Both the position numbers and the translations under genes were made by a program. From positions 1 through 26,284 of the forward strand of contig JBDRBU010000041.1 in NCBI GenBank assembly GCA_043822305.1: a stretch of DNA of 26,284 nt, in the 5' to 3' direction. Shown here one piece after another: positions 1,040-20,690 of this stretch (the stretch's first letter is position 1; each line of letters opens with the position of its first letter). The notes beneath the pieces are model-generated. The model was not told the origin of the DNA and searched no databases. It was given only the letters and a program-made list of their open reading frames with translations. This DNA is from Candidatus Firestoneibacteriota bacterium (GTDB lineage: Bacteria; Oederibacteriota; D2-FULL-39-29; JBDRBU01).

Positions 1040-3130
1040 CTAATACTTTTTTTCAAACCAGCCATGACCATATGAATAAATTATTTTTGCATTAGAATCC
1101 CTTACATCTTTCCATAATGTCTTTTTTTCTTCTCGGCCATACACTATTTTATCTTTTTGTAAACTGAAAATTTCATCTTTGTAAACTCCAGTAACTGCAT
1201 CATTTGAGATGAATATATTAAAATTATTATCAACTTTAATATTAAGACGACCGAAGGAAGTCCCCGTGGAATAAAAATCTTTTTTTTCATTCATTTTAAG
1301 TTTTTTATCAAATTTTATCTTTGTTAAAAACTCCTCCCAATCAGAAGAGTACAGCAAATAGTTTATTTTATTTATTCCATTTTTATAAAGGGATGGTAAA
1401 ACCATCCTCTCAACTTCATAATCAGAACTTTTACCCAGACAATATATCAGGTTAAATCTATTTTTATAATTTAAAATTTTAACTTTCGCATTTTTAAGGC
1501 TTAGAAAACTTATCTCTACCTTTTCCTTATTGAAAAATATGTTAGGCCAGATTACAACATTTAAGATAAACACACTTATTAGTAAATATTTTGGATATTT
1601 TCCAATTATACTTTTAAAATTAAAAATTAATACTATGACCACATAATATATTAATATAGTAAAAAATGTAGGTGGTTCCATCCTTATTATAGAAAAAGAA
1701 AATTCAGAAAAAAATTTAACTATTTTTAACATAAATGTTAGTGAAAAGAAATTTATAAAACCTATAACCTTTGCTAAAAACAAGCTAAAGAATCCAAAGC
1801 ATACTTGAATAAAACCTAAAACAGTAGAAAGCCAAACAAAAGGAGCAATGAGAAGATTTGCAAAAAAAGATATTATGGAAATATAATAAAAGTAAAACGC
1901 GAGTACGGGCAGGACAAATATCTGGGCAGAAAATGTGACAGAAATTATATCTACAAGTAATCTGGGCAAAAAGTGAAGTATTTTTTCAAATTTCGGAGTT
2001 AAATAAATTATACCAAAAGTTGCAACATATGAAAGCTGAAATCCTATATCAAATAAATCAAAAGGAAAAAATATTAAAACAATTAAAGCAGAAAAACCTA
2101 ATATATTTAAAATATCAGTATCTCTTTCTAAAATCAAGGCCATGAGTATAATGACAGCAATTATAGTTGCTCGAGTAACTGAAGGAGAAGCTCCACTTAT
2201 AAAACAAAATAAAATTACAAAAACAATACTCGAACCTTCACAAATTTTTTTGGGTAATTTAAATAATTTTAATATAAAAAAGAAAGTGACTACAACTAAT
2301 CCGACATTAAATCCAGAGACCGCTAATATGTGAAATGTGCCGGTATCACGGAATTCCCTTTGAATACCAGATGGAAGCGCATCCTCTTCTCCTATTAAAA
2401 CTCCTTGAAGCAGTGCAGATTGCAAACTATCCTTAGGAAAAGAATCTTCTATTATTTTTAACATCTTATGTTTCAATAAAACCGCAGATGAAATAAACAA
2501 ATTCTTAGTTCCCTCTCCTATTTTCTCTATAACATCACCTTCAGCTGGTTTAATACTACCTAGAGCAAATATTTTTTTTCTTTCTAAGTATTTTTTATAA
2601 TTAAATTCTCCAGGATTTTTTGATTCTTTGGGAAAATTTATCCTTGTGCGAATTTTTAATCTATCCCCGTAATTCAGTTCCTCATAATTTATTTCGTTAT
2701 ATAAAACTAATTTAACAAGTCCAGATACTTTTTCTTCCGCTTTTGATGATATAACCTTTTCTAATTTTAAAATTAACTCGGCCGTCTTATTCTCTTTTAC
2801 GATTTTAACATCTTTGACCAATATCCCCACAACAAAAACTTTCCTGCCTTTATATTTTTCTACCTGATATTTTATATGATCTAATGGAAAAGTCTTGGTC
2901 TGAATATTGCAAAGTAAAATAGAAATAAAGAAAGATAAGGTTAACCAGAAAATAAGATTTGGAAGTTTTTTGAAAAGATATAAGGCCATAATAAAAATTA
3001 AAAATAATACAATAAACACATAAGAGATATTTAAAAAAGATGAAATAACTATACCCAGGATATAAAAAATTGCAATAAATATTAAAGGCCTATTTAAAAA
3101 TTGTTTATGGCAAGTTTCATAATATGACAT
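1040..3130 (-). CDS. comEC: ComEC/Rec2 DNA-uptake membrane protein (OB/DUF4131 plus Competence domain; eroded C-terminal metallo-beta-lactamase-like region)
   Basis: 696 aa, many hydrophobic segments, with NPGEFNYKKYL, GTFHILAVSGFNVG, GASPSVTRA and GFQLSYVAT motifs. Exact start is uncertain. Confidence 0.92.
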   Translation of the reverse strand: MSYYETCHKQFLNRPLIFIAIFYILGIVISSFLNISYVFIVLFLIFIMALYLFKKLPNLIFWLTLSFFISILLCNIQTKTFPLDHIKYQVEKYKGRKVFVVGILVKDVKIVKENKTAELILKLEKVISSKAEEKVSGLVKLVLYNEINYEELNYGDRLKIRTRINFPKESKNPGEFNYKKYLERKKIFALGSIKPAEGDVIEKIGEGTKNLFISSAVLLKHKMLKIIEDSFPKDSLQSALLQGVLIGEEDALPSGIQREFRDTGTFHILAVSGFNVGLVVVTFFFILKLFKLPKKICEGSSIVFVILFCFISGASPSVTRATIIAVIILMALILERDTDILNILGFSALIVLIFFPFDLFDIGFQLSYVATFGIIYLTPKFEKILHFLPRLLVDIISVTFSAQIFVLPVLAFYFYYISIISFFANLLIAPFVWLSTVLGFIQVCFGFFSLFLAKVIGFINFFSLTFMLKIVKFFSEFSFSIIRMEPPTFFTILIYYVVIVLIFNFKSIIGKYPKYLLISVFILNVVIWPNIFFNKEKVEISFLSLKNAKVKILNYKNRFNLIYCLGKSSDYEVERMVLPSLYKNGINKINYLLYSSDWEEFLTKIKFDKKLKMNEKKDFYSTGTSFGRLNIKVDNNFNIFISNDAVTGVYKDEIFSLQKDKIVYGREEKKTLWKDVRDSNAKIIYSYGHGWFEKKY
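1246..1269. repeat. 24-bp GC-rich dispersed repeat inside comEC
   Basis: GACGACCGAAGGAAGTCCCCGTGG is the exact reverse complement of 19914-19937. It is read as STGTSFGR in ComEC. Confidence 0.9.
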
Positions 3131-3163: not shown

Positions 3164-3187
3164 CTCGGGGTCAGGAACGACCCCGAG
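3164..3187. repeat. REP-like palindrome (9-bp stem)
   Basis: CTCGGGGTC-AGGAAC-GACCCCGAG. A related, interrupted copy lies at 14974-15019. Confidence 0.75.
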
Positions 3188-4508: not shown

Positions 4509-5462
4509 TTATCTGTTTTTTATAAGCATATCTATTCTGTAATTCTCTATTGTATCTTCATAACCAATATATTTTATGCGGTCTTCAGGAAGTATTAATG
4601 AATCTGTTAAATACTTGGCAACTACTTTTGATTGTTCTGTGGCCATAGTGGAATTTTCCCCATATACTTCTACTTTTATAGATAAATTAAAATTCTCTTT
4701 AAGTATATCTAACGATTCTTTTAACAAAACAATATTTTCGTCAATTAATTTAGTTTTTTCTTTCTCAACATTAAACAATTTTTTTCTGGTTATACTTATA
4801 AATAGCCCATTTTCTTCCTGGTGAATCAAAGAATGAATAACAAATGGCGCACCGATTAAGGTTCTAGGATTCCCGGCTTCATCTGTAAAATTAACCAAAT
4901 AAGAATATGCATTACCAACTTTTACAACTTTGTCTTCCTGATTTCTCCCACTCCATTCAATTGATGAAGGAGGAACACCCTTACCTTCAAACTTTTTAAA
5001 AACTTTGCCTTTTGAATCTGTAACAATTAGTTCCCATGCTGCTACTTTAATGCCTAATACATTTAAAGAAAAATTGGCTATTGGCTCTTTTATCATGGCT
5101 ATTAAATAAGGATTTGCGGTTCCACCTGTCATTAAGAATTTCGGGACAGATTCCTGTAAATTAACAAGATTTGGACTTTTTTCCAAAAACTTTCTTTCAG
5201 TTTCTATAGTCGGCAGTACTATTTCGTTTAAATCCATTTTTAATTCTAAATACGGTTTTTCACTCTTTACTTTTAACTTATCCTCACCTGTAATTGTTAT
5301 ATCCTCTAACTTACCCGATTCAGATGGCTTAGAAAATGGTTTCTCTGATGTGGTTTGCGGTTGTGGAAGTTGTATCTGCTGGGCCTGGATGCAGGTTAAA
5401 GATAAAACAAATAAAAGCACAGGAGTCAGACCTTGACCTTTGACACTTCTAGGCTTTAACAT
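4509..5462 (-). CDS. Exported protein with FlgD-type Ig domain and degenerate OmpA/MotB-like C-terminal domain (317 aa)
   Basis: Start moved to the ATG at 5462, which follows AAGGAG (5471-5476). Signal-like VLLFVLSLTCIQA. WELIVTDSKGKVFKKFEGKGVPPSSIEWSGRN is FlgD-Ig-like. The C-terminus VAKYL...RIKYIGY...NYRIDMLI is OmpA-like. Confidence 0.65.
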   Translation of the reverse strand: MLKPRSVKGQGLTPVLLFVLSLTCIQAQQIQLPQPQTTSEKPFSKPSESGKLEDITITGEDKLKVKSEKPYLELKMDLNEIVLPTIETERKFLEKSPNLVNLQESVPKFLMTGGTANPYLIAMIKEPIANFSLNVLGIKVAAWELIVTDSKGKVFKKFEGKGVPPSSIEWSGRNQEDKVVKVGNAYSYLVNFTDEAGNPRTLIGAPFVIHSLIHQEENGLFISITRKKLFNVEKEKTKLIDENIVLLKESLDILKENFNLSIKVEVYGENSTMATEQSKVVAKYLTDSLILPEDRIKYIGYEDTIENYRIDMLIKNR

Positions 5463-5535: not shown

Positions 5536-5627
5536 TACTCTGATTGCTTTGCAATCAAGTATTCCTAATATATTGATTTTACATTAAAGTAAGTCATAAC
5601 ATTATTCATTTACATTATGGGAAGTCA
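5536..5627 (+). repeat. Inverted copy of the composite hairpin element
   Basis: TACTC-TGATTGC-TTT-GCAATCA-AGTAT-TCCTAA followed by ATTTACATTATGGGAAGTCA (5608-5627). Same architecture as the minus strand of 3225-3287 and 21458-21556. Confidence 0.8.
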
Positions 5628-6944
5628 TTGTAATTTAAATCTGAATGTTATTATTCCCCACTGGTCCTCTTGTAAGACATTTTTCAGCAGTGGTTCAAAC
5701 TGCCATTGTTTTAGTACGGTCATAACAAGTTTATCAAGTTCAGTATATCCAGAAGTTGTCTCGATAGTCATCTCATCCCTAACAAATCCATCACGCGAAA
5801 CTAAAAATCTTATTGAAACATCTGCTTCTATTCCTTTTTCTTTCATCCATTCAGGATACTTTGGCATATAAAAAGCTATTCTTCCCCTATCCTTTAATGG
5901 GCCTGACAATTCAAACACAGGTTTCTTTACATTTTCCATGGCAACTTTTTCTGTTGATTGTGATTCAGATGTCTTTTTAATAACAAAAGCATCTTTCCTC
6001 TCCATCTTTTTTAAGGTTTCATCTTTATCAATATTAATTCCTCCACCTCCTTCACTATAACCAATCTTTGGTTTTTCTCCACCACCTCCAGCACCACTTG
6101 AAGCAACACGAGTTGGAACCTTCTCTACTAATTTTTCTTCTAAGGCCAGGAGCTCTCTTATTTTTTTTCTTTCTTCTTTTGTCCCCATTATCTCTTTTAT
6201 TTTAACATCAGACGGGGCTTTACTATTTAATTTTATTCCTAAATCATCTCCGGCAAACCCTGCTTTCTTTTGTTCTTTAATCGGCTCTTTCCTCTCAATT
6301 AACAAATCCTGTGGGGTTAAATTTTTTATCGTTTCGTTTTCAATCTTTTCACGCTCTCTATCACTTAAAACATCTTTAACTTTCATCTCTCTTTTTAAAC
6401 CTACCTCATTTTCAAATTGAAGAGGACTTCCGCTTTCTCTTTGTAATTCTCCCTTGTCAACAATTTGTCTTTCCTGTTCTATTAATTCTTTTATTTTATT
6501 TGCATCTCCCTTGGTTAATTTCATTAGATCTGCTAATTTTTGATCTTTTTCTTTATTTAACTCTTCAAACTTTAATGCATCCTGTTTTCTTCTTAAGGGA
6601 TCCTCCTTTTCCACAAGTTTTCTTTCTATATCCATTGCTTTTTCTAATTCTTTTTTTACAACTTCTATAGGTTTTTCTTCTTTTTTTACCACAGGAAAAT
6701 CCGGCTTTTTAAAAGTAGGCAGTGCCATCTTTACAAACTCCCAAATATTTTTTGGTTTCTCGGCTGGCGGACCAGGAGGTGTACCTGGCATAACCGGCTC
6801 AATAAAATTTATATTGGCAATGACCTTCAGTTCCTTTCTGTGCTTAATAGTAAAAAATCCAAACAATCCTAAGATCATAACATGAAATATAAAAGATATA
6901 AGGAATGATGCCATAATTCTTCTATCTTCGTAGAAGATATTCAC
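5625..6944 (-). CDS. tonB: TonB family energy transducer with long charged linker (439 aa)
   Basis: Start moved to the GTG at 6944 behind AAGGAG. N-terminal TM helix with S-x3-H (ISFIFHVMILG). C-terminal TonB_C: PKYPEWMKEKGIEADVSIRFLVSRDG...SGYTELD...WQFEP...FRFKL. Confidence 0.85.
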   Translation of the reverse strand: MNIFYEDRRIMASFLISFIFHVMILGLFGFFTIKHRKELKVIANINFIEPVMPGTPPGPPAEKPKNIWEFVKMALPTFKKPDFPVVKKEEKPIEVVKKELEKAMDIERKLVEKEDPLRRKQDALKFEELNKEKDQKLADLMKLTKGDANKIKELIEQERQIVDKGELQRESGSPLQFENEVGLKREMKVKDVLSDREREKIENETIKNLTPQDLLIERKEPIKEQKKAGFAGDDLGIKLNSKAPSDVKIKEIMGTKEERKKIRELLALEEKLVEKVPTRVASSGAGGGGEKPKIGYSEGGGGINIDKDETLKKMERKDAFVIKKTSESQSTEKVAMENVKKPVFELSGPLKDRGRIAFYMPKYPEWMKEKGIEADVSIRFLVSRDGFVRDEMTIETTSGYTELDKLVMTVLKQWQFEPLLKNVLQEDQWGIITFRFKLQ

Positions 6945-6948
6945 AAAC

Positions 6949-7362
6949 TTATCTCCTTTTTTGTTCAGTAGCAATAGTAATCTTTTTTGCTCCTGCTTTT
7001 TTGGATATACTCATTGCTTCTTCAATTGTCCCATACAAAGCATTTTGGTCTGCTCTTATTATCACAAATCTATCTTTACTTCCCTTTATTTTTGTAAGCA
7101 ACCTCTCGGCCACTACCTCTTTAGATGGTAAAGTTTCTTCATTAAGTGCCCATTCGTTTTTCTCACTAATTGTTATAGTAATATTTTCTTTTTCTTCTCC
7201 TTCTAATGTTGTTGCTTTTGGAAGTATTACTTTAAGTATTGGCTGTATCATTAAAGGTGCGGTTACCATAAATATAATAACCAGCACTAAACATACATCA
7301 ACTAATGGAGTAACGTTTATTCCTGTTATTATTTCTTCTTCGGAACTAACTGACATGGCCAT
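6949..7362 (-). CDS. exbD: ExbD/TolR biopolymer transport protein
   Basis: 137 aa with [22 protein letters not shown] and VIIRADQNALYG. AAGGAG RBS upstream. Confidence 0.92.
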   Translation of the reverse strand: MAMSVSSEEEIITGINVTPLVDVCLVLVIIFMVTAPLMIQPILKVILPKATTLEGEEKENITITISEKNEWALNEETLPSKEVVAERLLTKIKGSKDRFVIIRADQNALYGTIEEAMSISKKAGAKKITIATEQKRR

Positions 7363-7613: not shown

Positions 7614-8837
7614 TTACTTTATTTCCATCTGAATAGTGGTCCCCGGTAAAGAGGTTTCTATTTGAACACTATCACTCCCGGTATCTACCTCTCCCAACTT
7701 ATTTTCAAGCAGAAGTTCAACACTATATTTACCATCAGGGACATAACTTCCATTATCATCCTTCCCATTCCAGATAATACTTGAAGGTGGTTGTTGTTTT
7801 TTCCCTTCAAATCTTCTGACTTTAGTTCCAGTCTTATCTTTTATACTTAACTCCCATCTCCTTATTCCAAACTTACTTCCTCCCTTAAGTTTTATCTCTA
7901 CTTCTTTTTTAGTTCCAACCGGGGAAAACATCTTTGGGTTAGTCTCTACTTCAACTGTAAATACACTAAATACCCAGGTAAAAGAAACACGGTGTGAAAG
8001 TCCCAGACTTTGTGATGCTATTGCATAATCCAAACCATATCCTTTATAAGAAAGTCCTATTCCTGCTGTCACTTCTGTTTCATCTAGACCACCCCTTATT
8101 CCTATAAAAGGATAAAGCCAGTATTCCAGACCTACATGGAACTTAAAGGCCGAAGTAAGAGTTTTTTCTATATCATTGGTTAAGGATAAATTGCTATCAA
8201 GAAGCTTTAAGGCTACGCCAAATCTAAAGTTTAAGGGATAAGTATCCATCTCGTCTTTTAACTTGATTCTGGGTGCAATAATATTTTGAATATTCCCTCC
8301 CAGATTTAAAAATTCAAACGGTTTGTAAAGGAAACCTATATCTACTCCTGCACCCACTCCTTCGTAAGATAAAATTTGCTGATAAACCACCTTAAATGTA
8401 GAACCTAAAGATAAATCTTTAAGAATGTTCATACCATATGAAAGAAGAACAGCAGCTTCAAGATCATAAAAAGAACCTATAATTTCACCATACTGATTAA
8501 TCTCTTCGAAGCCGGTAGAACTTAAAATCACTACTCCTAATCCTATTCCTCCCAGATTTTTAAGAGGCTGAGCATATGAAATAAAATCATAATTTGTGCT
8601 TTCAAAAAGAAAAGCATGTAACCCTGTTATCTCTTCTGTTAATAAATAAGATAAACCCGCTGGATTCCAATAAGTACTCGTAGAATCTTCAGCCAGTCCA
8701 ACAAAAGCTTTTCCCATGCCTAATGAACGTGCCCCGGCTCCCCAATTTAAAAATGTACCGGGAAGTCCAGCATATGTTCCAGCATATGCATTACTTATAA
8801 CAAATATAGCCACAATAAAGATACATATTTTTTTCAT
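7614..8837 (-). CDS. PorV/PorQ (FadL-like, UPF0164) outer-membrane beta-barrel with C-terminal FlgD-type Ig domain
   Basis: Signal peptide MKKICIFIVAIFVISNAYA. Family motif GAGARSLGMGKAFVGLAEDSTSTYWNPAGL. Amphipathic strands end at HRVSFTWVF, then WELSIKDKTGTKVRRFEG...IIWNGKDDNGSYVPDGKY. Confidence 0.8.
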   Translation of the reverse strand: MKKICIFIVAIFVISNAYAGTYAGLPGTFLNWGAGARSLGMGKAFVGLAEDSTSTYWNPAGLSYLLTEEITGLHAFLFESTNYDFISYAQPLKNLGGIGLGVVILSSTGFEEINQYGEIIGSFYDLEAAVLLSYGMNILKDLSLGSTFKVVYQQILSYEGVGAGVDIGFLYKPFEFLNLGGNIQNIIAPRIKLKDEMDTYPLNFRFGVALKLLDSNLSLTNDIEKTLTSAFKFHVGLEYWLYPFIGIRGGLDETEVTAGIGLSYKGYGLDYAIASQSLGLSHRVSFTWVFSVFTVEVETNPKMFSPVGTKKEVEIKLKGGSKFGIRRWELSIKDKTGTKVRRFEGKKQQPPSSIIWNGKDDNGSYVPDGKYSVELLLENKLGEVDTGSDSVQIETSLPGTTIQMEIK

Positions 8838-11800
8838 TTAACTACCCCTATCTTACGTTTTAAGACAGTAGTCCCACTACTCGCTTTAACCATAATATAA
8901 CATATATAACCACCATTAGCCACTATCTCACCAGACCCGTTAGCCCCATCCCAAAAAACCAAATTGGTACCTTGCATTCCTCCAAGTTCTCCTATTAAAA
9001 ACTCCTGCCGCCAAACCAGATGACCAAAAAGGTCATGTATCTTTAAATCTACATTAGCATCCTCATCTAAATAATATTCAATAGTAGTTTTCTCCCTACC
9101 AGCCGCAAAAGGGTTAGGATAATTAGTTGATGTACTTGTAATCATAGTACTCGTCATATAAAAAGTTGCACTCTTTATCGGCTCAATATTTCCACCTGTA
9201 TCAACACTGTAAAAATAAATAGTGTGTTTCCCTACCCTGACCTTATCAAATTGAGTATTATTTATATTAAAGGGCCCTTCATAAAGCACAAAATTCGGAG
9301 TATTGTCTATTTTGTAATAAATCTTTGCCACAGGCAATCCATTACCTGGTGTTGTTTTAAACTTAAGAATACTATTCTCCTTTACATAAATTACTCCTCT
9401 CCTGTTAAAACCAAGAAATTCTATTTCAACTGAAGTAGTTGACGGAGTTAAATCAACCTTTATTTCTAAATCATATGTCACATTTTCTGTTTTTAATCTT
9501 ATAATATTTTCCCCGGCTATACTACCAGAAGTTAAAGCACCTGTTATCTGTCCATCATTATTTGTTAAACCGAATCCTGTTATAATCGTTCCTCCACTAT
9601 TTTGTGTTATCTCAGCCGTTACCCACTGATTAACAAGAGGAGAGTCATTCTCATCAGATACACTAACTAAAATAGTTGCTGACCAGCCGGCTCCCTTAAT
9701 TGTCGAAGGATCAGAGACAGCATATATTTTCATTCCCGGCTTTGATCTAACAGAAAATTGGTTTGACACTCCAGATATACTACTTTCTATCACAGTAATC
9801 TTTGTAGTTTCCACACAAAATAAAGTGGTGGTTAACGGCGTCGTGGCTAGGCCATTAGTAAAATTTACAGAAGTAGTGTAAGCTGGCGATCCACCTAATC
9901 CACTTAACGGACCACTATAAAATAATGTTTTAACTCCACTATATTCAGTAGCCACATTACCACTACCATCTCTGGCCACAAGTGTAGTCATATTAAACGG
10001 TATCCCAACATAGACAACATCTGGTAGACTTAGACTAAAGTAAGAAACAGAAGATGAACCTACGGTTATTAAATTGGAATCTCCAGAGACAGAACCTTCA
10101 ACTATATGAATTTGGATAGTTTCTGCAACTACAAGAGTTGTAGCCAAAATTGTCGTTGCGACCCCATTAGCAAAATTTACCGAATTTGTATACGTTGGTG
10201 TTCCAGAAGGACCACTATAAGTAAGTGTTTTTAAGCCGACATACGCTTTGGCTATATTTCCATAAATATCCTTAGCCGTTATGCTTGTTATGTTAAAAGG
10301 AACTCCAGCCGTCACTGGCGTAGGTGATATTATCACAAATGAAGTAGCACTACTAGAGTTTACTGTTATTAAAGGTGAAGTCCCGGTTATTGTTGTTGTG
10401 GCCGTAATAGTTGGAGTCTCTCCTGCATTGGTTAAGATAAAACCAGATACAGTTGAAACTCCATTAGTAAATATCTGGTTGCCATCAGTTGGCTTTGTCG
10501 GTGGTGTATTATTTGGTGAATTTGTTGCTGGCCATGTCCAGGTAACAAACTTAAAACCTGTATAACTAATAGCAGTATTTCCCTCATTATCCCTTGCTGT
10601 TAATGTGACCGAAAATGAAATACCTGCTGTTTCTATCCCATTATTCTGTATGACTACATTAAAATTAGTTGCAGAATTTGGAGCAACATTAATACTGTTA
10701 GAATCTCCTGAAATTCCTACTTCAGTTATATGTATAGCTACTGACTCCACTTTAACTAATATAGTAGTTAAAATAGTGGTAGATGCTCCAGCAGTAAAAT
10801 TAACTGATGTTGTGTATGTCGGTGGATTGCCAAACGGACTATTTCCTGGTCCACTGTAAACAAGAGCCTTTGGACCCGAATAACTTGTGGCCAGGTTACT
10901 ATATGCATCATAAACCGTAATAGGATTAATAATAAAAGAAATACCAACAGTAACATTGGGCGGTGCAGTAAAACTAAAGGTTGAAGGAGTACCATGGAGA
11001 ACTATTATCGGAGACGATATTCCATTAACAGAACCAGATGTGGCCACAATAGTAGGTGTTTCTCCACTATCCACCAAAATAAATCCAGATTTCGTTGTTA
11101 ATCCAGAGACAAATGTGCAATCACCATCAGCCGGTTTTGTTGGTGGAGTATTATTTGGTGAATTTGTTGCTGTCCATGTCCAGGTAACAGAAGTAGTTCC
11201 TGTAAATGTCGAAGTATTAGCATAAACATCTAATGCCATTAAATTTACTGAAAATGATACACCTGCTGTCTCTGTCCCGCTAAGCTGGGTAGTTACTACA
11301 AAACTATTCATTGTTGGATGACCATTAACTGTAATAGGAAAGGAAGTTCCATTCAATAATCCACCAGTAGCCGTTATTGTTGGTGTTTCTCCTGCATTCG
11401 TTAAGGTCCAACCTGGGACAGTTGAAACTCCATCAGTAAATGTCTGATTACCATCCGATGGTTTCGTTGGTGGTGTATTATTTGGTGAATTTGTTGCTGT
11501 CCATGTCCAGACTATACTTTTGCTTCCAGTATAACCGGCAACAGGATTTCCATATGCATCACATTCTGATAATACGACTGAAAATGTAACACCAGCTATT
11601 TCTACCCCATTATGTTCCGTAACAACAGAAAATTTAGATACAACGTTTGGATTAACAGTTATTAAATTAGATGTCCCACTCACAGTAATTTGTGTTACAT
11701 TTATGTTTACTGCCTCTGCTCTGACTAATGTCGTTGGTATATTAATGACTACTCCATTTGTAAAATTAACGGGTGTTGTGTATGTTGGTGAATTCCCAAA

Positions 11801-14800
11801 CGGACTGTTACCCGGTCCGCTATAGGAAAGATTCTTAGAACCATTATAAGTTGTAGCAATATTCCCAAATGTATCTTTTGCTGTTATATTCGTTATATTA
11901 AATGAAACTCCAGCCGTCACTGGTGTAGGTGATGTTATTGTAAACGAGGTAGCATTACCAGGATTTACTGTTATTAAAGGAGATGTCCCATTTATTAAAC
12001 TATCAGAAGCACTAATAGTTGGTGTTTCTGATGCATTGGTTAAAGTAAAGCCAGGAACATTTACAATCCCATTGGTAAAATTCTGGTTTCCGTTCGCTGG
12101 CTTAATTGGAAGATGGCCATATGGTGAATTAGTTGCTGTCCATGTCCAGGTTATACTATGAACACCTGCATATCCAGTAGCAGTATTTCCATAAATATCT
12201 TTTGCTCTTAATGTCACATAAAATGATATTCCTGCTGTTTCTATGTTATTATGTTCTGTCGTAACTGCAAAACTGTTTCCGGTACCAGCATTAACTGTTA
12301 TTAAATTTGAATCTCCGGCTATTAAACCTTCCACTATGTGTATGGCCACTATTTCTACCATAACTAATGTTGTAGAAATAATTGAAGCAACTCCATTTGC
12401 AAAATTAACCGGATTTGTATAGGATGGATTTCCAAACTCAGGACCATTACCAGGGCCACTCCAGACAAGAGTCTTTGAACCACTGTAACTTGTAATAGTA
12501 TTCCCATAAATATCACAGCATGTAATTGTGGTCATATCAAATGGAATACCAGCATAAACAGATACAGGTGCAACAATACTAAAATTATTTGCAGAATTTG
12601 GATTAACTGTAACGCTATTAGAGGTACCACTCACAGTAATTTGTGTTACATTTATATTTACTACTTCTGCCTTCACTAATGTAGTTGGTATATTAGTCGC
12701 CACTCCACTTGTAAAAGTAACCGAGGTCGTGTATGTTGGTAAATTTCCAAACGGACTATTTCCCGGTCCACCGTAAACAAGAGTTTTTACACCATTATAG
12801 CCGATAACTATATTTCCATATGAATCTTTTGCTGTTATATCCGTTATATTAAATGAAATCCCCGCTGTTACTGGTGTGGGTGATGTTATTGTAAATGAGG
12901 TAGCATTAGCAGGATTTACTGTTATTAAAGGGGATGTCCCTGTTATTGTTGTTGTTGCTGTAATAGTTGGAGTCTCTCCTGTATTCGTCAGGGTAAATCC
13001 TAGTACAGTTGCAACTCCATTTGTAAATGTCTGATTACCATCTGATGGTTTCGTTGGTGGTGTATTATTTGGTGAATTTGTTGCTGTCCATGTCCAGGTA
13101 ACAAATTTAGAACCTGTATAACTAATAGCAACATTCCCGTAAGCATCTTTTGCAGTTAATGTCACTGAAAACGAATTACCCGCTGTTTCTATATTATTAT
13201 TTTGTGTTACCACAGTAAAACTGGATGCTGTATTAGAATTTACTGTTATTGGACCTGAAGTCCCGATGTTAGAACCATCCGAAGCAGAAATAGTAGGAGT
13301 CTGCGATGCATTGGTTAAGGTAAATCCTGGGACAGTTGCAACTCCATTAGTAAATGTCTGATTACCATCTGATGGTTTCGTTGGTGGTGTATTATTTGGT
13401 GAATTTGTTGCTGTCCATGTCCAGGTTATACTGTGGGTACCTGTATAAGCGGGAGTAGTATTTCCATATATATCCTTTGCCGTTAATGTCACTGAAAATG
13501 GACTACCAGCTGTTTCTACATTACCATTCTGTGTTACTACTTGAAAATTATTAGTAGAATTTGGGTCAACTATAATACTATTGGAATCGCCACTCACTGT
13601 GGACTGTGTTATATGAATAGATACTGTTTCTACTTTTACTAATGTAGTAGAAATATTTGTCGCTACTCCGCTTACAAAATTAACTGGATTAGAATAAGTA
13701 GGAGTGTTGCCATATAGACTGTTACCGGGCCCACTATAGGCAAGAGTCTTAGAACCATTATAAGTTGGAGAGATATTTCCATACAGATCTTTTGCTATTA
13801 TATTTGTTATACTAAATGAACTTCCTGCTGTTACTGGCGTGGGTGATGTTATCGTAAATGAGTTAGCACTTGCAGAATTTACAGTTATTGCATTTGAAAT
13901 ACCACCGATAGATCCATCTGAAGCAGAAATAGTTGGAGTTTCTCCTGTATTGGTTAAGATAAAACCTAGTCTAGTTGAAACTCCATTAGTAAATGTTTGG
14001 TCGCCATTTGCAGGCTTTGTTGGTGATGTATTATTTGGTGAATCCGTTGCTGTCCAAGTCCAGGTTATACTGTGGGTTCCTGTATAAGTTGGAGTAATAT
14101 TACCACATATATCTTTTGCTATTAGTGTAACTGAGAATGAAATACCTGCGGTCTCTACATTACCATTTTGTGTGGATACTGTAAAATTATTAGAGGAACT
14201 TACATTCACAATTATTGCATTTGAAGTCCCAATTATTGCTCCATTTTGTGCTGTAATAGTAGGAGTTTGTCCAGCGTTTGTTAATGTAAACCCCGGTATA
14301 GTTGAAACTCCATTAGTAAATGTCTGGTCGCCATTTGCAGGCTTTGTTGGTGATGTATTATTTGGTGAATCCGTTGCTGTCCAAGTCCAGGTTATACTGT
14401 GGGTTCCTGTATAAGTTGGAGTAGTATTACCATATATATCTGTTGCCGTCAATGTCACTGAAAATGAACTACCTACGGTTTCAGTACCATTATGTTCTGT
14501 CTCAACTCTAAATCTTGAAGTATTACCAGGATTAACAGTAATTGTAGCAGAGGTTCCATTTACGGTGCCAGCTGTTGCAGAAATAGTAGGAGTTTGTCCT
14601 GCATTCGTTAAGGTCCAGCCTGGTACAGTTACAACTCCACTAATAAATGTCTGGTTACCATTTGCTGGTTTCGTTGGTGGTGTATTATTTGGTGAATTCG
14701 TTGCCGTCCATGTCCAAGTTATACTATGGGTACCTGTATAACTTGTATCAGTTTGTTCAGAAATATCTTTAGCCGTCAATGTTACTGAAAATGCTATACC

Positions 14801-14929
14801 TACAGTTTCAGTTCCACCATTCTGGGTTACAACTGTAAAATGAGTGGCAGGCCCACCATATGATAAACCAACAAAAAGAAACATTATAGCCAAAACAGTC
14901 TTTTTATTTAATCTATCCTTGCAAAACAT
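8834..14929 (-). CDS. Large secreted/surface protein: 16 Thr-rich Ig-like repeats, a Big-1-like and another Ig-like domain, and a C-terminal T9SS-CTD/FlgD-like domain
   Basis: 2031 aa with an N-terminal signal-like segment. Repeats of about 100-110 aa carry AKDxYGN motifs. The C-terminus reads NYPNPF...TTIEYYL...VDLKIHDLFGHLV...WDGANGSGEIVANGGYICYI...KRKIGVVK. Its stop overlaps the next start (ATGA). Confidence 0.85.
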   Translation of the reverse strand: MFCKDRLNKKTVLAIMFLFVGLSYGGPATHFTVVTQNGGTETVGIAFSVTLTAKDISEQTDTSYTGTHSITWTWTATNSPNNTPPTKPANGNQTFISGVVTVPGWTLTNAGQTPTISATAGTVNGTSATITVNPGNTSRFRVETEHNGTETVGSSFSVTLTATDIYGNTTPTYTGTHSITWTWTATDSPNNTSPTKPANGDQTFTNGVSTIPGFTLTNAGQTPTITAQNGAIIGTSNAIIVNVSSSNNFTVSTQNGNVETAGISFSVTLIAKDICGNITPTYTGTHSITWTWTATDSPNNTSPTKPANGDQTFTNGVSTRLGFILTNTGETPTISASDGSIGGISNAITVNSASANSFTITSPTPVTAGSSFSITNIIAKDLYGNISPTYNGSKTLAYSGPGNSLYGNTPTYSNPVNFVSGVATNISTTLVKVETVSIHITQSTVSGDSNSIIVDPNSTNNFQVVTQNGNVETAGSPFSVTLTAKDIYGNTTPAYTGTHSITWTWTATNSPNNTPPTKPSDGNQTFTNGVATVPGFTLTNASQTPTISASDGSNIGTSGPITVNSNTASSFTVVTQNNNIETAGNSFSVTLTAKDAYGNVAISYTGSKFVTWTWTATNSPNNTPPTKPSDGNQTFTNGVATVLGFTLTNTGETPTITATTTITGTSPLITVNPANATSFTITSPTPVTAGISFNITDITAKDSYGNIVIGYNGVKTLVYGGPGNSPFGNLPTYTTSVTFTSGVATNIPTTLVKAEVVNINVTQITVSGTSNSVTVNPNSANNFSIVAPVSVYAGIPFDMTTITCCDIYGNTITSYSGSKTLVWSGPGNGPEFGNPSYTNPVNFANGVASIISTTLVMVEIVAIHIVEGLIAGDSNLITVNAGTGNSFAVTTEHNNIETAGISFYVTLRAKDIYGNTATGYAGVHSITWTWTATNSPYGHLPIKPANGNQNFTNGIVNVPGFTLTNASETPTISASDSLINGTSPLITVNPGNATSFTITSPTPVTAGVSFNITNITAKDTFGNIATTYNGSKNLSYSGPGNSPFGNSPTYTTPVNFTNGVVINIPTTLVRAEAVNINVTQITVSGTSNLITVNPNVVSKFSVVTEHNGVEIAGVTFSVVLSECDAYGNPVAGYTGSKSIVWTWTATNSPNNTPPTKPSDGNQTFTDGVSTVPGWTLTNAGETPTITATGGLLNGTSFPITVNGHPTMNSFVVTTQLSGTETAGVSFSVNLMALDVYANTSTFTGTTSVTWTWTATNSPNNTPPTKPADGDCTFVSGLTTKSGFILVDSGETPTIVATSGSVNGISSPIIVLHGTPSTFSFTAPPNVTVGISFIINPITVYDAYSNLATSYSGPKALVYSGPGNSPFGNPPTYTTSVNFTAGASTTILTTILVKVESVAIHITEVGISGDSNSINVAPNSATNFNVVIQNNGIETAGISFSVTLTARDNEGNTAISYTGFKFVTWTWPATNSPNNTPPTKPTDGNQIFTNGVSTVSGFILTNAGETPTITATTTITGTSPLITVNSSSATSFVIISPTPVTAGVPFNITSITAKDIYGNIAKAYVGLKTLTYSGPSGTPTYTNSVNFANGVATTILATTLVVAETIQIHIVEGSVSGDSNLITVGSSSVSYFSLSLPDVVYVGIPFNMTTLVARDGSGNVATEYSGVKTLFYSGPLSGLGGSPAYTTSVNFTNGLATTPLTTTLFCVETTKITVIESSISGVSNQFSVRSKPGMKIYAVSDPSTIKGAGWSATILVSVSDENDSPLVNQWVTAEITQNSGGTIITGFGLTNNDGQITGALTSGSIAGENIIRLKTENVTYDLEIKVDLTPSTTSVEIEFLGFNRRGVIYVKENSILKFKTTPGNGLPVAKIYYKIDNTPNFVLYEGPFNINNTQFDKVRVGKHTIYFYSVDTGGNIEPIKSATFYMTSTMITSTSTNYPNPFAAGREKTTIEYYLDEDANVDLKIHDLFGHLVWRQEFLIGELGGMQGTNLVFWDGANGSGEIVANGGYICYIMVKASSGTTVLKRKIGVVK

Positions 14930-14973: not shown

Positions 14974-15019
14974 TCGGGGTCGTCCCACGGGGACTTCCTT
15001 TGGTTGTCCCTGACCACGA
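14974..15019. repeat. REP-like palindrome interrupted by one copy of the 24-bp repeat
   Basis: TCGGGGTCGT[CCCACGGGGACTTCCTTTGGTTGT]CCCTGACCACGA. Removing the bracketed 24 bp (14984-15007) gives a 20/22 match to the reverse complement of 3165-3186. Confidence 0.8.
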
Positions 15020-15036
15020 CATACCTTATGGTCGTA

Positions 15037-15453
15037 TCATTTCTCTTGTATTTTTTTTAATATAGATAATTTTTCTGCACCATTTTGTTTTGCAATATCA
15101 AGAACATCAACAACTTCAAAACATCTGTTTTCTTTATCGGCCACAAGTGTAACCATTTTATCTTTACTCTTAAATATTGCTTGTTGTAATTCTATGCCAA
15201 GATTTCCCCTTTTCACTTCTCTCCCGTTAATAATAATTTTACCTTCTTTAGTTAAAATGACATTTACATTTTCGCTTTGCGTTACCTTTCCTGTCTCAGC
15301 CCCAGAAGAAGATTGGCTTACCCTGATACCGGCTTGCATAATAAAATTTGCTGTTACCATAAATATAATAACCAAAACCAGACAAACATCAACTAATGGG
15401 GTAACATTTATATCTGTTATTGCGCTTTCTTCTTCACTGGTTTTTACGGCCAT
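15037..15453 (-). CDS. exbD: ExbD/TolR biopolymer transport protein (second paralog, 138 aa)
   Basis: Start moved to the ATG at 15453 (GGAG just upstream; MAVKTSEEE parallels MAMSVSSEEE of the paralog). Contains [21 protein letters not shown] and VTLVADK...[13 protein letters not shown]. Confidence 0.9.
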
Positions 15454-19451: not shown

Positions 19452-20690
19452 TTAAATAGGGACAGACACCATATTCTTTGCTTCATCATAAATTATCCTG
19501 ACCGGAATATTTTTCTTTTTTGATATCCTCTTACAATCATTAAATTCAGGCGAGATACTTATTATCCTACCTTTTAATTTGCCAATCTTTGTTTTAACCA
19601 TTCCCCATTTTGTTTTTATGTATTTAAATTCTTTGATTAATTTAAATCTTTTTGCATAATAATATCTTACTCCAAAAGTTGTTGTTTCATTTAAAATATC
19701 TTCTATAATTTTATTCTGGTCTTCTTTTTCACATAACACTGTTAATTTAATTGCTGGTCTGTTCTTTTTCATATGAATATTAGTTAAAGATACATCAAGA
19801 GCATTAGATTTAAATAGTTTTTCTATTAAACTATCATAAAATAATGGGGACATATCATCTATATTTGTTTCAACAACAGCAATTTCGTCCCACAGGGACT
19901 TCCTTCGGTCGTCCCACGGGGACTTCCTTCGGTCGTCAGATTCTGCTTCTTCATTATTTAAACTTCCAATTAAAACTCTTAGTACATTTGGGTGCTGACC
20001 AAAATCAATACTACCCGCACTATATCCTATATTTTCTACAACAAATTTATTTTTCTGAAATTTATCTTTTCTATCTACAAGATAAGATAAAATACTTGCA
20101 CCGGTTGGAGTAGCTGTCTCAAAAGGAATATCACTAAAATATACGGGAAGTCCTTTAAGAAGTTCTAATGTTGCTGGGGCTGGATTTGGCAAAACCCCAT
20201 GAGAACAGACTATCTTGCAATTTCCACCCAGATTAATTGGCGAAACAAATACTTTATAAATGTTCAATTCTTTTAAGCAAATTAAAGTTCCAACAATGTC
20301 TACTATTGTGTCAATTCCACCTATCTCATGAAAATAAATTTCATTTATCTTTTCTCCATGAATCTTGCTTTCAATTTTAGCTAAGTTACAAAAAATATCT
20401 TTTGCTTTTCTTTTTATCTCGTTGTCTAATAAACTTTTTTCTATGATTTTTACAATATCTGAATATCTTCGGTGAGTATGTTTTTTCTCGTTTTTAGCTA
20501 CAACATCTACTTTTACCGCGTTAATAATCCCTCTTTTAACCTTTTTTATCTTTAAATTAAAATCTCTTAATTTTAATTTTTTAAGTTCTTGGTTTAACGT
20601 TTCAAATGAAACTCCGGCATCAATAAGTGCACCCAGAATCATATCCCCGGAAATTCCGGAGAAGCAGTCAAAATAAAGTATTTTTTTCAA
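19452..20690 (-). CDS. larC: Nickel pincer cofactor biosynthesis protein LarC, with an in-frame 16-aa repeat-derived insertion
   Basis: TTG start behind GGAGG. Motifs YFDCFSGISGDMILGALID, FHEIGGIDTIVDIVG, HGVLPNPAPAT, TPTGA, ETNIDD, MKKNRP, ETTTFGVR and PEFNDC. Confidence 0.93.
   Translation of the reverse strand: MKKILYFDCFSGISGDMILGALIDAGVSFETLNQELKKLKLRDFNLKIKKVKRGIINAVKVDVVAKNEKKHTHRRYSDIVKIIEKSLLDNEIKRKAKDIFCNLAKIESKIHGEKINEIYFHEIGGIDTIVDIVGTLICLKELNIYKVFVSPINLGGNCKIVCSHGVLPNPAPATLELLKGLPVYFSDIPFETATPTGASILSYLVDRKDKFQKNKFVVENIGYSAGSIDFGQHPNVLRVLIGSLNNEEAESDDRRKSPWDDRRKSLWDEIAVVETNIDDMSPLFYDSLIEKLFKSNALDVSLTNIHMKKNRPAIKLTVLCEKEDQNKIIEDILNETTTFGVRYYYAKRFKLIKEFKYIKTKWGMVKTKIGKLKGRIISISPEFNDCKRISKKKNIPVRIIYDEAKNMVSVPI
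19885..19937. repeat. Tandem 2.2 x 24-bp GC-rich repeat inside larC
   Basis: TCGTCCCACAGGGACTTCCTTCGG / TCGTCCCACGGGGACTTCCTTCGG / TCGTC. Read as DDRRKSPW-DDRRKSLW in LarC. Confidence 0.95.

Follow-up and report, generated by a model that had tools for sequence, protein, structure and literature searches.

A 24-bp dispersed element inserted in frame into bacterial genes and into hairpin repeats of several phyla

The larC gene of a Candidatus Firestoneibacteriota genome (19452..20690, - strand; nickel insertion protein, PF01969) carries a 16-residue insert just ahead of its C-terminal domain, encoded by two adjacent copies of a short repeat. This raises the question of whether the repeat is a mobile element and, if so, how so small a DNA could move. 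The window considered here is the whole stretch of DNA analysed, 26,284 nt long, and is one contig of a 125-contig, 2.15-Mb genome assembly with a genome GC of 31.6%. The first-pass annotation, made from the letters of the window, had noticed a 24-mer twice in larC and once each in comEC and an intergenic region. Searching at up to 3 mismatches, we recovered these four places, and none in 100 dinucleotide shuffles; in the phase of that annotation, the matches were exact at 1246-1269 (-), 22/24 at 14985-15008 (+), 23/24 at 19890-19913 (+) and exact at 19914-19937 (+). The identity of 22/24 given for the intergenic copy was right, and its position, 14984-15007, was off by one. The peptides had been read correctly (DDRRKSPWDDRRKSLWD in LarC, STGTSFGR in ComEC), and Pfam confirmed both genes.

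Filled and empty sites

The physical unit starts 2 bases further left than the annotated phase, as set out below. In larC, one copy with the loop-1 allele ACA (19888..19911, +, on the strand opposite to the gene) encodes DRRKSLWD, absent from homologues, and a copy with the allele ACG stands head-to-tail with it (19912..19935, +) and encodes DRRKSPWD. The comEC copy (1248..1271, -) has a C>T change at position 2, lies on the same strand as its host gene (1040..3130, -; PF03772 and PF13567) and reads STGTSFGR. The fourth copy (14983..15006, +; two changes) occupies the loop of a REP-like hairpin of the host, between exbD and a gene for a 2031-aa protein. This hairpin, GGGGTCG/TCCCTGACC (14976..15017, +; here and below a slash marks the insertion point), is split by the element into halves at 14976-14982 and 15007-15017, and an empty copy at 3167..3184 (-) provides an internal control.

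A search of the whole assembly on both strands, which the first-pass annotation had proposed, gave 15 copies, coding and intergenic, at up to 5 mismatches (13 at up to 2 mismatches, 4 exact), spread over 9 contigs. Nine are in frame within 8 genes, five lie in the loop of the host hairpin and one is otherwise intergenic. The in-frame carriers are LarC (2 copies), ComEC, a GGDEF protein, Fpg, a GT87 glycosyltransferase and PheT, together with two proteins that have the copy at an end, in the last codons of Dxs and in the tail of a MATE transporter. Both element orientations were found within genes of this genome. Across these genes and the ORFs of two other carriers (G090 and G070), the element is read in at least four frames, and the peptide varies with the frame. 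The Dxs copy (G000:C48, near 19960-19990, -) sits in a short overlap zone with the next gene and is preceded by TTTTTGGTCG, which is like the end of another copy. Near 4765 (-) on contig C123 of the same genome, a degenerate host hairpin holds the element's right module only, as a decayed or truncated copy would.

We aligned LarC with 20 homologues, 15 from the 120 listed and 5 from relatives, and the 16 residues were missing from all 20. The nearest homologue among those listed, P0002 (73% identity), reads KAES/DEIAVVETNIDD; its gene has GAA TCT GAT GAA where the window has GAA TCT GA(48 bp)C GAA, which makes it shorter by exactly 48 bp; the difference left at the junction is synonymous. The prediction that cutting 48 bp from larC restores ES-DEIAVVETNIDD thus agrees with the nearest homologue. 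The site had also been placed in an inter-domain linker, and the solved C-terminal domain 6bwo_A indeed aligns starting at LarC residue 268, the first after the insert. Among the 101 of 120 listed proteins that matched the anchors, this linker has a modal length of 18 residues and reaches at least 30 in 7 other proteins, and so it tolerates length. ComEC differs from its sole other match, P0122 (72% over the alignment), by exactly STGTSFGR, an 8-residue indel at FY/LNIK. The comparison with nearest homologues that had been suggested for LarC and ComEC therefore returned clean indels of 16 and 8 residues, and Fpg likewise has 8 extra residues, cleanly, relative to the 2 homologues found in 5 genomes. 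PheT was rejected as a clean 8-residue indel, having about 10 extra residues at the available divergence. A cultured Neisseriaceae strain has a further in-frame copy within an ABC-F gene (L250, G076:C17:65032-65055); this copy too was rejected as a clean indel, the proteins of 4 relatives being without about 9 residues at the site.

In the source genome the host hairpin, GGGGTCG/TCYCTGACCCC, exists as 48 empty and 5 filled copies. These filled and empty repeats, with the protein indels, bear out the annotated view of a non-autonomous, dispersed and inserted element, as opposed to ancestral sequence or an artefact. The two loop alleles of the larC pair each occur as single copies elsewhere in the genome. 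The pair fits two successive insertions, and one duplication plus one mutation could also have produced it. One public read run shared 6% of words, and its contigs did not extend over the larC and 14983 sites.

Boundaries, targets and reading frame

Because of two observations, the single register of xanthomonad insertions and a comparison of flanks at 127 outside sites, the unit is written Y-CCC-NNN-GGGA-Y-TY-CC-NNN-GG-TC-R, as fixed by filled and empty sites. The xanthomonad insert sits in CCCTCTC/CC-NNN-GGGAGAGGG, whose empty form occurs 2-94 times in each of 5/5 genomes; the sole possible register there is T-CCC...GGTC-G, with no base common to either flank. The 127 outside sites come from at least 123 GTDB stretches matched by an exact 23-base pattern. 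Flanking bases were shared with both ends of the element at 80 sites, with the left end only at 18, with the right only at 9 and with neither at 20. The 80 sites share a 2-base RY with both ends, and the other 47 are without even a 2-base duplication. In the source genome TCGTC stands on both sides at 7/14 sites, which accounts for the earlier reading that the inserts are bounded by a TCGTC direct repeat. That reading did not survive the remaining own sites or the 20 outside sites with no shared base; TCGTC is a preferred target, not a duplication.

Genes are not the main home of the element. Four repeat-like target classes hold 86/127 outside sites: a Rhodocyclaceae repeat (50), the xanthomonad hairpin (15), G/TAG (11) and CG/TC (10). 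The Rhodocyclaceae repeat, which starts AAGTCGGCGCYGGCG, is present as 184-305 empty copies in 5/5 genomes (G061, G065, G073, G081, G084); 2 of these five genomes are without a Y1_Tnp match. The usual insertion point is YG/Y or YC/C, with no obligatory target duplication. This target loosely resembles the element's own end-to-start junction, and each insertion therefore makes a new target; tandem arrays of two to five units, often of mixed variants, were found. Within the source genome, the host hairpin accounts for 5/14 own sites but only about 53/1293 TCGTC words (binomial p = 2e-4). Five other repeat families of this genome, ACAACCCCCTAACCCCCTTT (about 61-65 copies), CAACCCCCTTGATCCCCC (24), GTAGTCGCAGGCTTTAGCCTGC (about 31-38), GGTGCGTGGGTAAACCC (11) and CGGCTTTCACTGAC (23), were not seen to be interrupted by the 24-mer under the split patterns used. 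Elsewhere, two near-identical repeat cassettes with the element (L306 and L307, G093:C5) lie inside one ORF of more than 1000 codons, which, judged by eye from its sequence, may be a UvrA.

The exact 23-base pattern spans several phyla, mostly inside other hairpin repeats. The 80 matches listed include Beta- and Gammaproteobacteria (Sulfuritalea, Methyloversatilis, Paraburkholderia, Kingella, Dyella, Lysobacter, Xanthomonas, Pseudoxanthomonas), as well as Chloroflexi, Elusimicrobia, Pedobacter and a deltaproteobacterial MAG. Of the genomes behind the listed matches, 48 hold 1-54 copies each, and named cultured strains, including complete chromosomes, are among the carriers. Close to the host the element is rare, in 1/60 relatives and in 2/98 other genomes of the phylum, none of the same order, many of these genomes being incomplete MAGs. 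There was no exact match in IMG/VR viral contigs; the matches in a phage collection spanned just 18-24 bases with E no lower than 1, which we took as chance, and the 2 plasmid matches were both Caballeronia megaplasmids. Near-identity across phyla, combined with absence from kin, points to horizontal spread.

With the left arm relaxed, the same right module was found behind other hairpins, in units of about 23, 25, 26, 27 and 35 bases. The 24-bp element is thus one of a wider family whose members keep the right module, A-Y-T-Y-CC-NNN-GG-TC-R, constant and vary in the length of the left hairpin. Head-to-tail arrays of 35-base units ending in this module were seen in two related-phylum carriers (L436 and L437 of G042; L282 and L272 of G022). 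The length family allowed a comparison of reading-frame effects in a subset of copies from two AT-rich MAGs (G090 and G070), with ORFs of at least 150 codons as a crude proxy for genes. Long ORFs contained 13/29 copies of 24 bases and 0/28 of 25 bases (Fisher p = 4e-5); after removal of the element the 25-base count became 2/28 (Fisher p = 0.002), many of the 25-base copies sitting in repeat arrays. The element can therefore move at lengths that are not a multiple of three, whereas staying in a gene requires one, and the 3n length is a survival filter, in line with the annotated idea that a frame-neutral length lets the element persist in genes.

The companion idea, that the element is built to be stop-free, was rejected. 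Stops are indeed absent from all six frames of the unit, of its 8 common variants and of the dimers of these, but 36% of base-shuffled sequences are likewise stop-free, which makes the property weak evidence. Nor does the frame bias call for selection: the DRRKSPW frame is used by 6/9 coding copies, and within coding DNA 49% of TCGTC words already stand in it, so the distribution of the target words is sufficient. The added peptides would be tolerated passengers in linkers and termini. The element repeatedly gives rise to short in-frame additions to proteins (DRRKSPWD, PTGTSFGR, ATEGSPRG, PRGLPSV and the like), which would otherwise be annotated as lineage-specific loops.

Fold and proposed movement

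Pairing between bases 12 and 24 was scored at 220 distinct sites, a sample biased to C:G by the first search: C:G occurred at 185, T:A at 30, T:G at 3 and C:A at 2. At 21 of the 30 T:A copies the left flank was G and not A, so base 24 belongs to the element. C:G and T:A types were both present within each of four genomes (G093, G075, G090, G070), and pair 2:10 swapped between A-T and G-C in one genome. Over 66 distinct 24-base variants (68 less one likely chance match and one 23-base form), the structure ((((...))))(..((...))..) paired 96.1% of cells, which 0/500 shuffles reached; slid controls were lower. The set held 14 double changes, 12 at 12:24 and 2 at 2:10. Most stem bases were set by the search patterns, which builds in part of the stem conservation, and relatedness among copies raises the pair counts; for this reason we count only 12:24 and, weakly, 2:10 as evidence. 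Sequence variation was concentrated in the two 3-nt loops. Position 1 was C at 73/220 sites, breaking pair 1:11, and tended to match the right flank.

The circular minimum free energy (MFE) fold is the same dumbbell, at about 0 kcal/mol, marginal by standard energies. The mini hairpin GTCCC-ACG-GGGAC, already picked out in the first-pass annotation, is the MFE fold. Since the two hairpins abut, bases 24 and 1 would lie side by side, implying a nicked dumbbell in the chromosome, or a closed dumbbell if excised, with both ends juxtaposed. The second loop is C-GAA-G on the purine-rich strand, where GGA, GCA, GTA and AAA variants also occur; the pyrimidine-rich strand has C-TTCG-G, with variants TCCG, TGCG and TACG. 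The common T14C variant would turn the internal loop of the purine strand into tandem G-A pairs, which are stable. According to PMC3201870, d(GNA) gives very stable three-base loops in DNA.

Which gene might move such a unit? The source genome encodes one IS200-type TnpA and five longer Y1 proteins, and a seventh match to the Y1_Tnp Pfam profile is sub-threshold; the element was within 1.5 kb of 0/7 of these loci, including the 6 above the Pfam cut-off. An all-against-all comparison of 2088 ORFs from 111 loci (L241-L351), with the top clusters judged by eye, revealed housekeeping and repeat-derived clusters only and no recurring mobility gene. Six own Y1 proteins matched one of the 111 loci, more than 1 kb from the element. 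The RAYT or other mobility gene flanked by the motif, for which the first-pass annotation had proposed to look, was thus seen neither at the own Y1 loci nor at the 111 loci. Y1_Tnp genes were found in 38/50 carriers and 18/25 element-free relatives (p = 0.78), and gave no match in G073, which has 54 copies, or in G075, a comparison limited by MAG incompleteness and weak profile scores. Y1 and RAYT genes do not track the element, and these tests speak against a cognate RAYT.

The element inserts precisely as 24 bp, reuses hairpin repeats and its own junction, and is patchily present in several phyla. On balance we think it probable that this is a non-autonomous micro-element of the SDR (small dispersed repeat) kind that moves by single-strand cut-and-join of a dumbbell. 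One strand, probably the purine-rich one with its C-GNA-G loop and purine-purine internal loop, would fold into two stacked hairpins (1-4 with 8-11; 12 with 24; 15-16 with 20-21). The nicked dumbbell would put the first and last bases side by side, so that a single cut-and-join step could free the 24 nt as a closed circle while sealing the donor; run in reverse, the step would place the circle in single-stranded or extruded hairpin DNA. We keep this model because it explains the precision, the absence of duplication, the self-targeting, the hairpin targets and the end-to-end pair. Against it, neither an excised circle nor an empty allele turned up, and no event was caught at read level. The likeliest chemistry, which we suggest tentatively, would be that of an HUH/Y1-type single-strand transesterase acting in trans. 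More doubtful is the bolder proposal that the closed 24-nt single-stranded dumbbell is the complete unit of horizontal spread, with no gene of its own and no cognate transposase: a widespread enzyme would recognise the invariant 14-base module, and the dumbbell would parasitise hairpin repeats and cross phyla essentially unchanged. If that were true, the dumbbell would be leaving tags of 8 residues in essential proteins, PheT and Dxs among them; mobile DNA would gain a new minimal class, and the SDRs would be accounted for as well.

Other routes have to be weighed against cut-and-join. It is unlikely that a small circle integrates by conservative site-specific recombination, through a tyrosine recombinase or an IS110-type enzyme, over a short shared core (RY, or as long as TCGTC or GGTCGTCCC), the mechanistic counterpart of the annotated direct repeat. 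Such a core would equally account for the RY ambiguity at 80/127 outside sites and TCGTC at 7/14 own sites, and it draws further support from the enrichment of the host hairpin, which shares GGTCG/TCCC with the element junction, and from position 1, which follows the target in the Rhodocyclaceae repeat. It has to contend with the 20/127 sites that share no base with either end and the 27 that share with only one, with A24 copies behind G at 21/30 sites, and with 111 loci at which no recombinase gene recurs nearby; moreover, two recombinase arms and a core would hardly fit into 24 bases. Less probable again is RNA copying, in which the reverse transcriptase of the host or of an intron would introduce a transcript with a cUNCGg-type loop into nicked hairpins, by reverse transcription or reverse splicing. 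The C-TTCG-G loop of the pyrimidine-rich strand and its variants presumably belong to the UNCG tetraloop family, which favours this route; read on the other strand, these variants are GNA loops, and they are thus as compatible with DNA as with RNA. The stem of a UNCG loop here would be a single pair, Rfam gave only one weak match beside the element (E = 3.4), and both orientations are present in genes, all of which tell against an RNA.

We give slightly less weight still to there being no dedicated enzyme, with a type IA topoisomerase, gyrase or minicircle-templated nick repair capturing and releasing the dumbbell at breaks in hairpin repeats. The entry of the element into several unrelated repeat families in distant phyla, the lack of a neighbouring mobility gene, the untracked Y1 genes and the empty IMG/VR search speak for such host activities; these leave unexplained why only 2/98 other genomes of the phylum are carriers, unless arrival is limiting, and the right module, invariant across length variants, looks like a specific binding site. 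That the element is ancestral protein sequence, a product of local slippage or an artefact of assembly or adapters is very improbable and largely refuted. The genome is a 125-contig assembly, and the larC tandem, taken by itself, might have arisen by slippage duplication and one later mutation; against this stand natural-looking variants among the copies, the element's presence in named cultured strains and complete chromosomes, homologues without its residues, and the occurrence of both larC loop alleles as single copies elsewhere in the genome.

Relation to known repeat classes

The nearest precedent is the SDR class of cyanobacteria, which is closer than the Rickettsia palindromic elements (RPEs, about 150 bp) that the first-pass annotation had named. 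Elhai is said to have described this class in 2008, with lengths of 21-27 nt, self-nesting of SDR1 and SDR4, and a secondary structure common to SDR4, SDR5 and SDR6. How elements of 21-27 bases move has been an open question since that year. SDR1-8 are small dispersed repeats of Nostocaceae in PMC4390886, PMC5861425 and PMC13756078, the last of which gives SDR5 as 21 nt and in 2026 still calls its function unknown. For comparison, we searched two N. punctiforme plasmids for GCG-N21-ATCGC and obtained 24 matches; about 6 loci share one sequence, which has two 3-pair hairpins with GTA/GCA loops and which we infer to be SDR5. Like the SDRs, our element is a dispersed repeat of matching size (24 bp) with precise insertion evident from filled and empty sites, and it enters other repeats and itself, as SDRs reportedly do in part. 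It also resembles SDR5 in precise insertion into a palindromic target after CG, and the N. punctiforme repeat in having two hairpins with 3-base loops. It differs in its targets (YG/Y and YC/C, not the HIP1 site GCG/ATCGC) and in sequence, which was compared with the recovered SDR5-like repeat and is unrelated to it; end-to-end 12:24 pairing is a feature of the present element. It thus works like the cyanobacterial SDRs while being, as judged against the SDR5-like repeat, of another sequence family. Within the SDR kind it is new in crossing phyla, and its sequences carry evidence for a putative dumbbell intermediate.

Membership of the REP, MITE and RPE classes was rejected, as the element is without their defining features. 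It shares with REP/REPIN sequences and their RAYTs a short, GC-rich, hairpin-forming, non-autonomous nature, and some REPs lie in frame in genes (PMC3733652, PMC3116915 and PMC6006769). Unlike them, it is a two-hairpin unit and not a single palindrome tagged with GTAG/CGTC, forms head-to-tail arrays instead of inverted doublets, flanks no RAYT gene, and enters REP-like repeats (G/TAG, CG/TC) rather than being one; CGTC at some sites is the target plus the element's first bases. MITEs differ in that the ends of the element are not inverted repeats and 47/127 sites are without even a 2-base duplication. Like our element, IS200/IS605 elements are not known to duplicate their target on insertion. 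Their enzymes bind 20-25-nt hairpins and move single-stranded circles (PMC6006769), and small hairpins are common to IS608, ISDra2 and our element, whose own putative single-stranded circle is suggested by the 12:24 co-variation. In contrast to them, the element has no tnpA and no separate left and right ends with guide tetranucleotides, its target is a loose 2-4 bases, and the whole of it is the size of one IS end. RPEs, described in Rickettsia at about 105-150 bp (PMC10969869 and PMC3184786), are similarly inserted in frame into unrelated housekeeping genes, but the element is 24 bp long and cross-phylum, and its peptides depend on the frame, of which at least four are used.

No prior description of this element family was found in the open-access article text searched, and six peptide strings had 0 matches in 4 text supplements of PMC3733652. 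The element is among the smallest mobile DNAs seen. Its exact boundaries, a co-variation-supported fold that predicts a 24-nt circle, and cultured carriers (Dyella, Lysobacter, Pseudoxanthomonas, Paraburkholderia, Caballeronia) together make the question of its movement testable at the bench; if an enzyme were found, a scarless 24-base insertion system would be a possible tool.

Within the window, the genes at 8834-14929, 7614-8837, 5625-7362 and 15037-15453 (all -) look like a surface-protein and outer-membrane energy cluster. Its products are the 2031-aa protein, which is Thr/Asn-rich, internally repeated and without a Pfam match, a protein with UPF0164 and FlgD_ig domains, one with a TonB C-terminal domain, and those of two ExbD genes.
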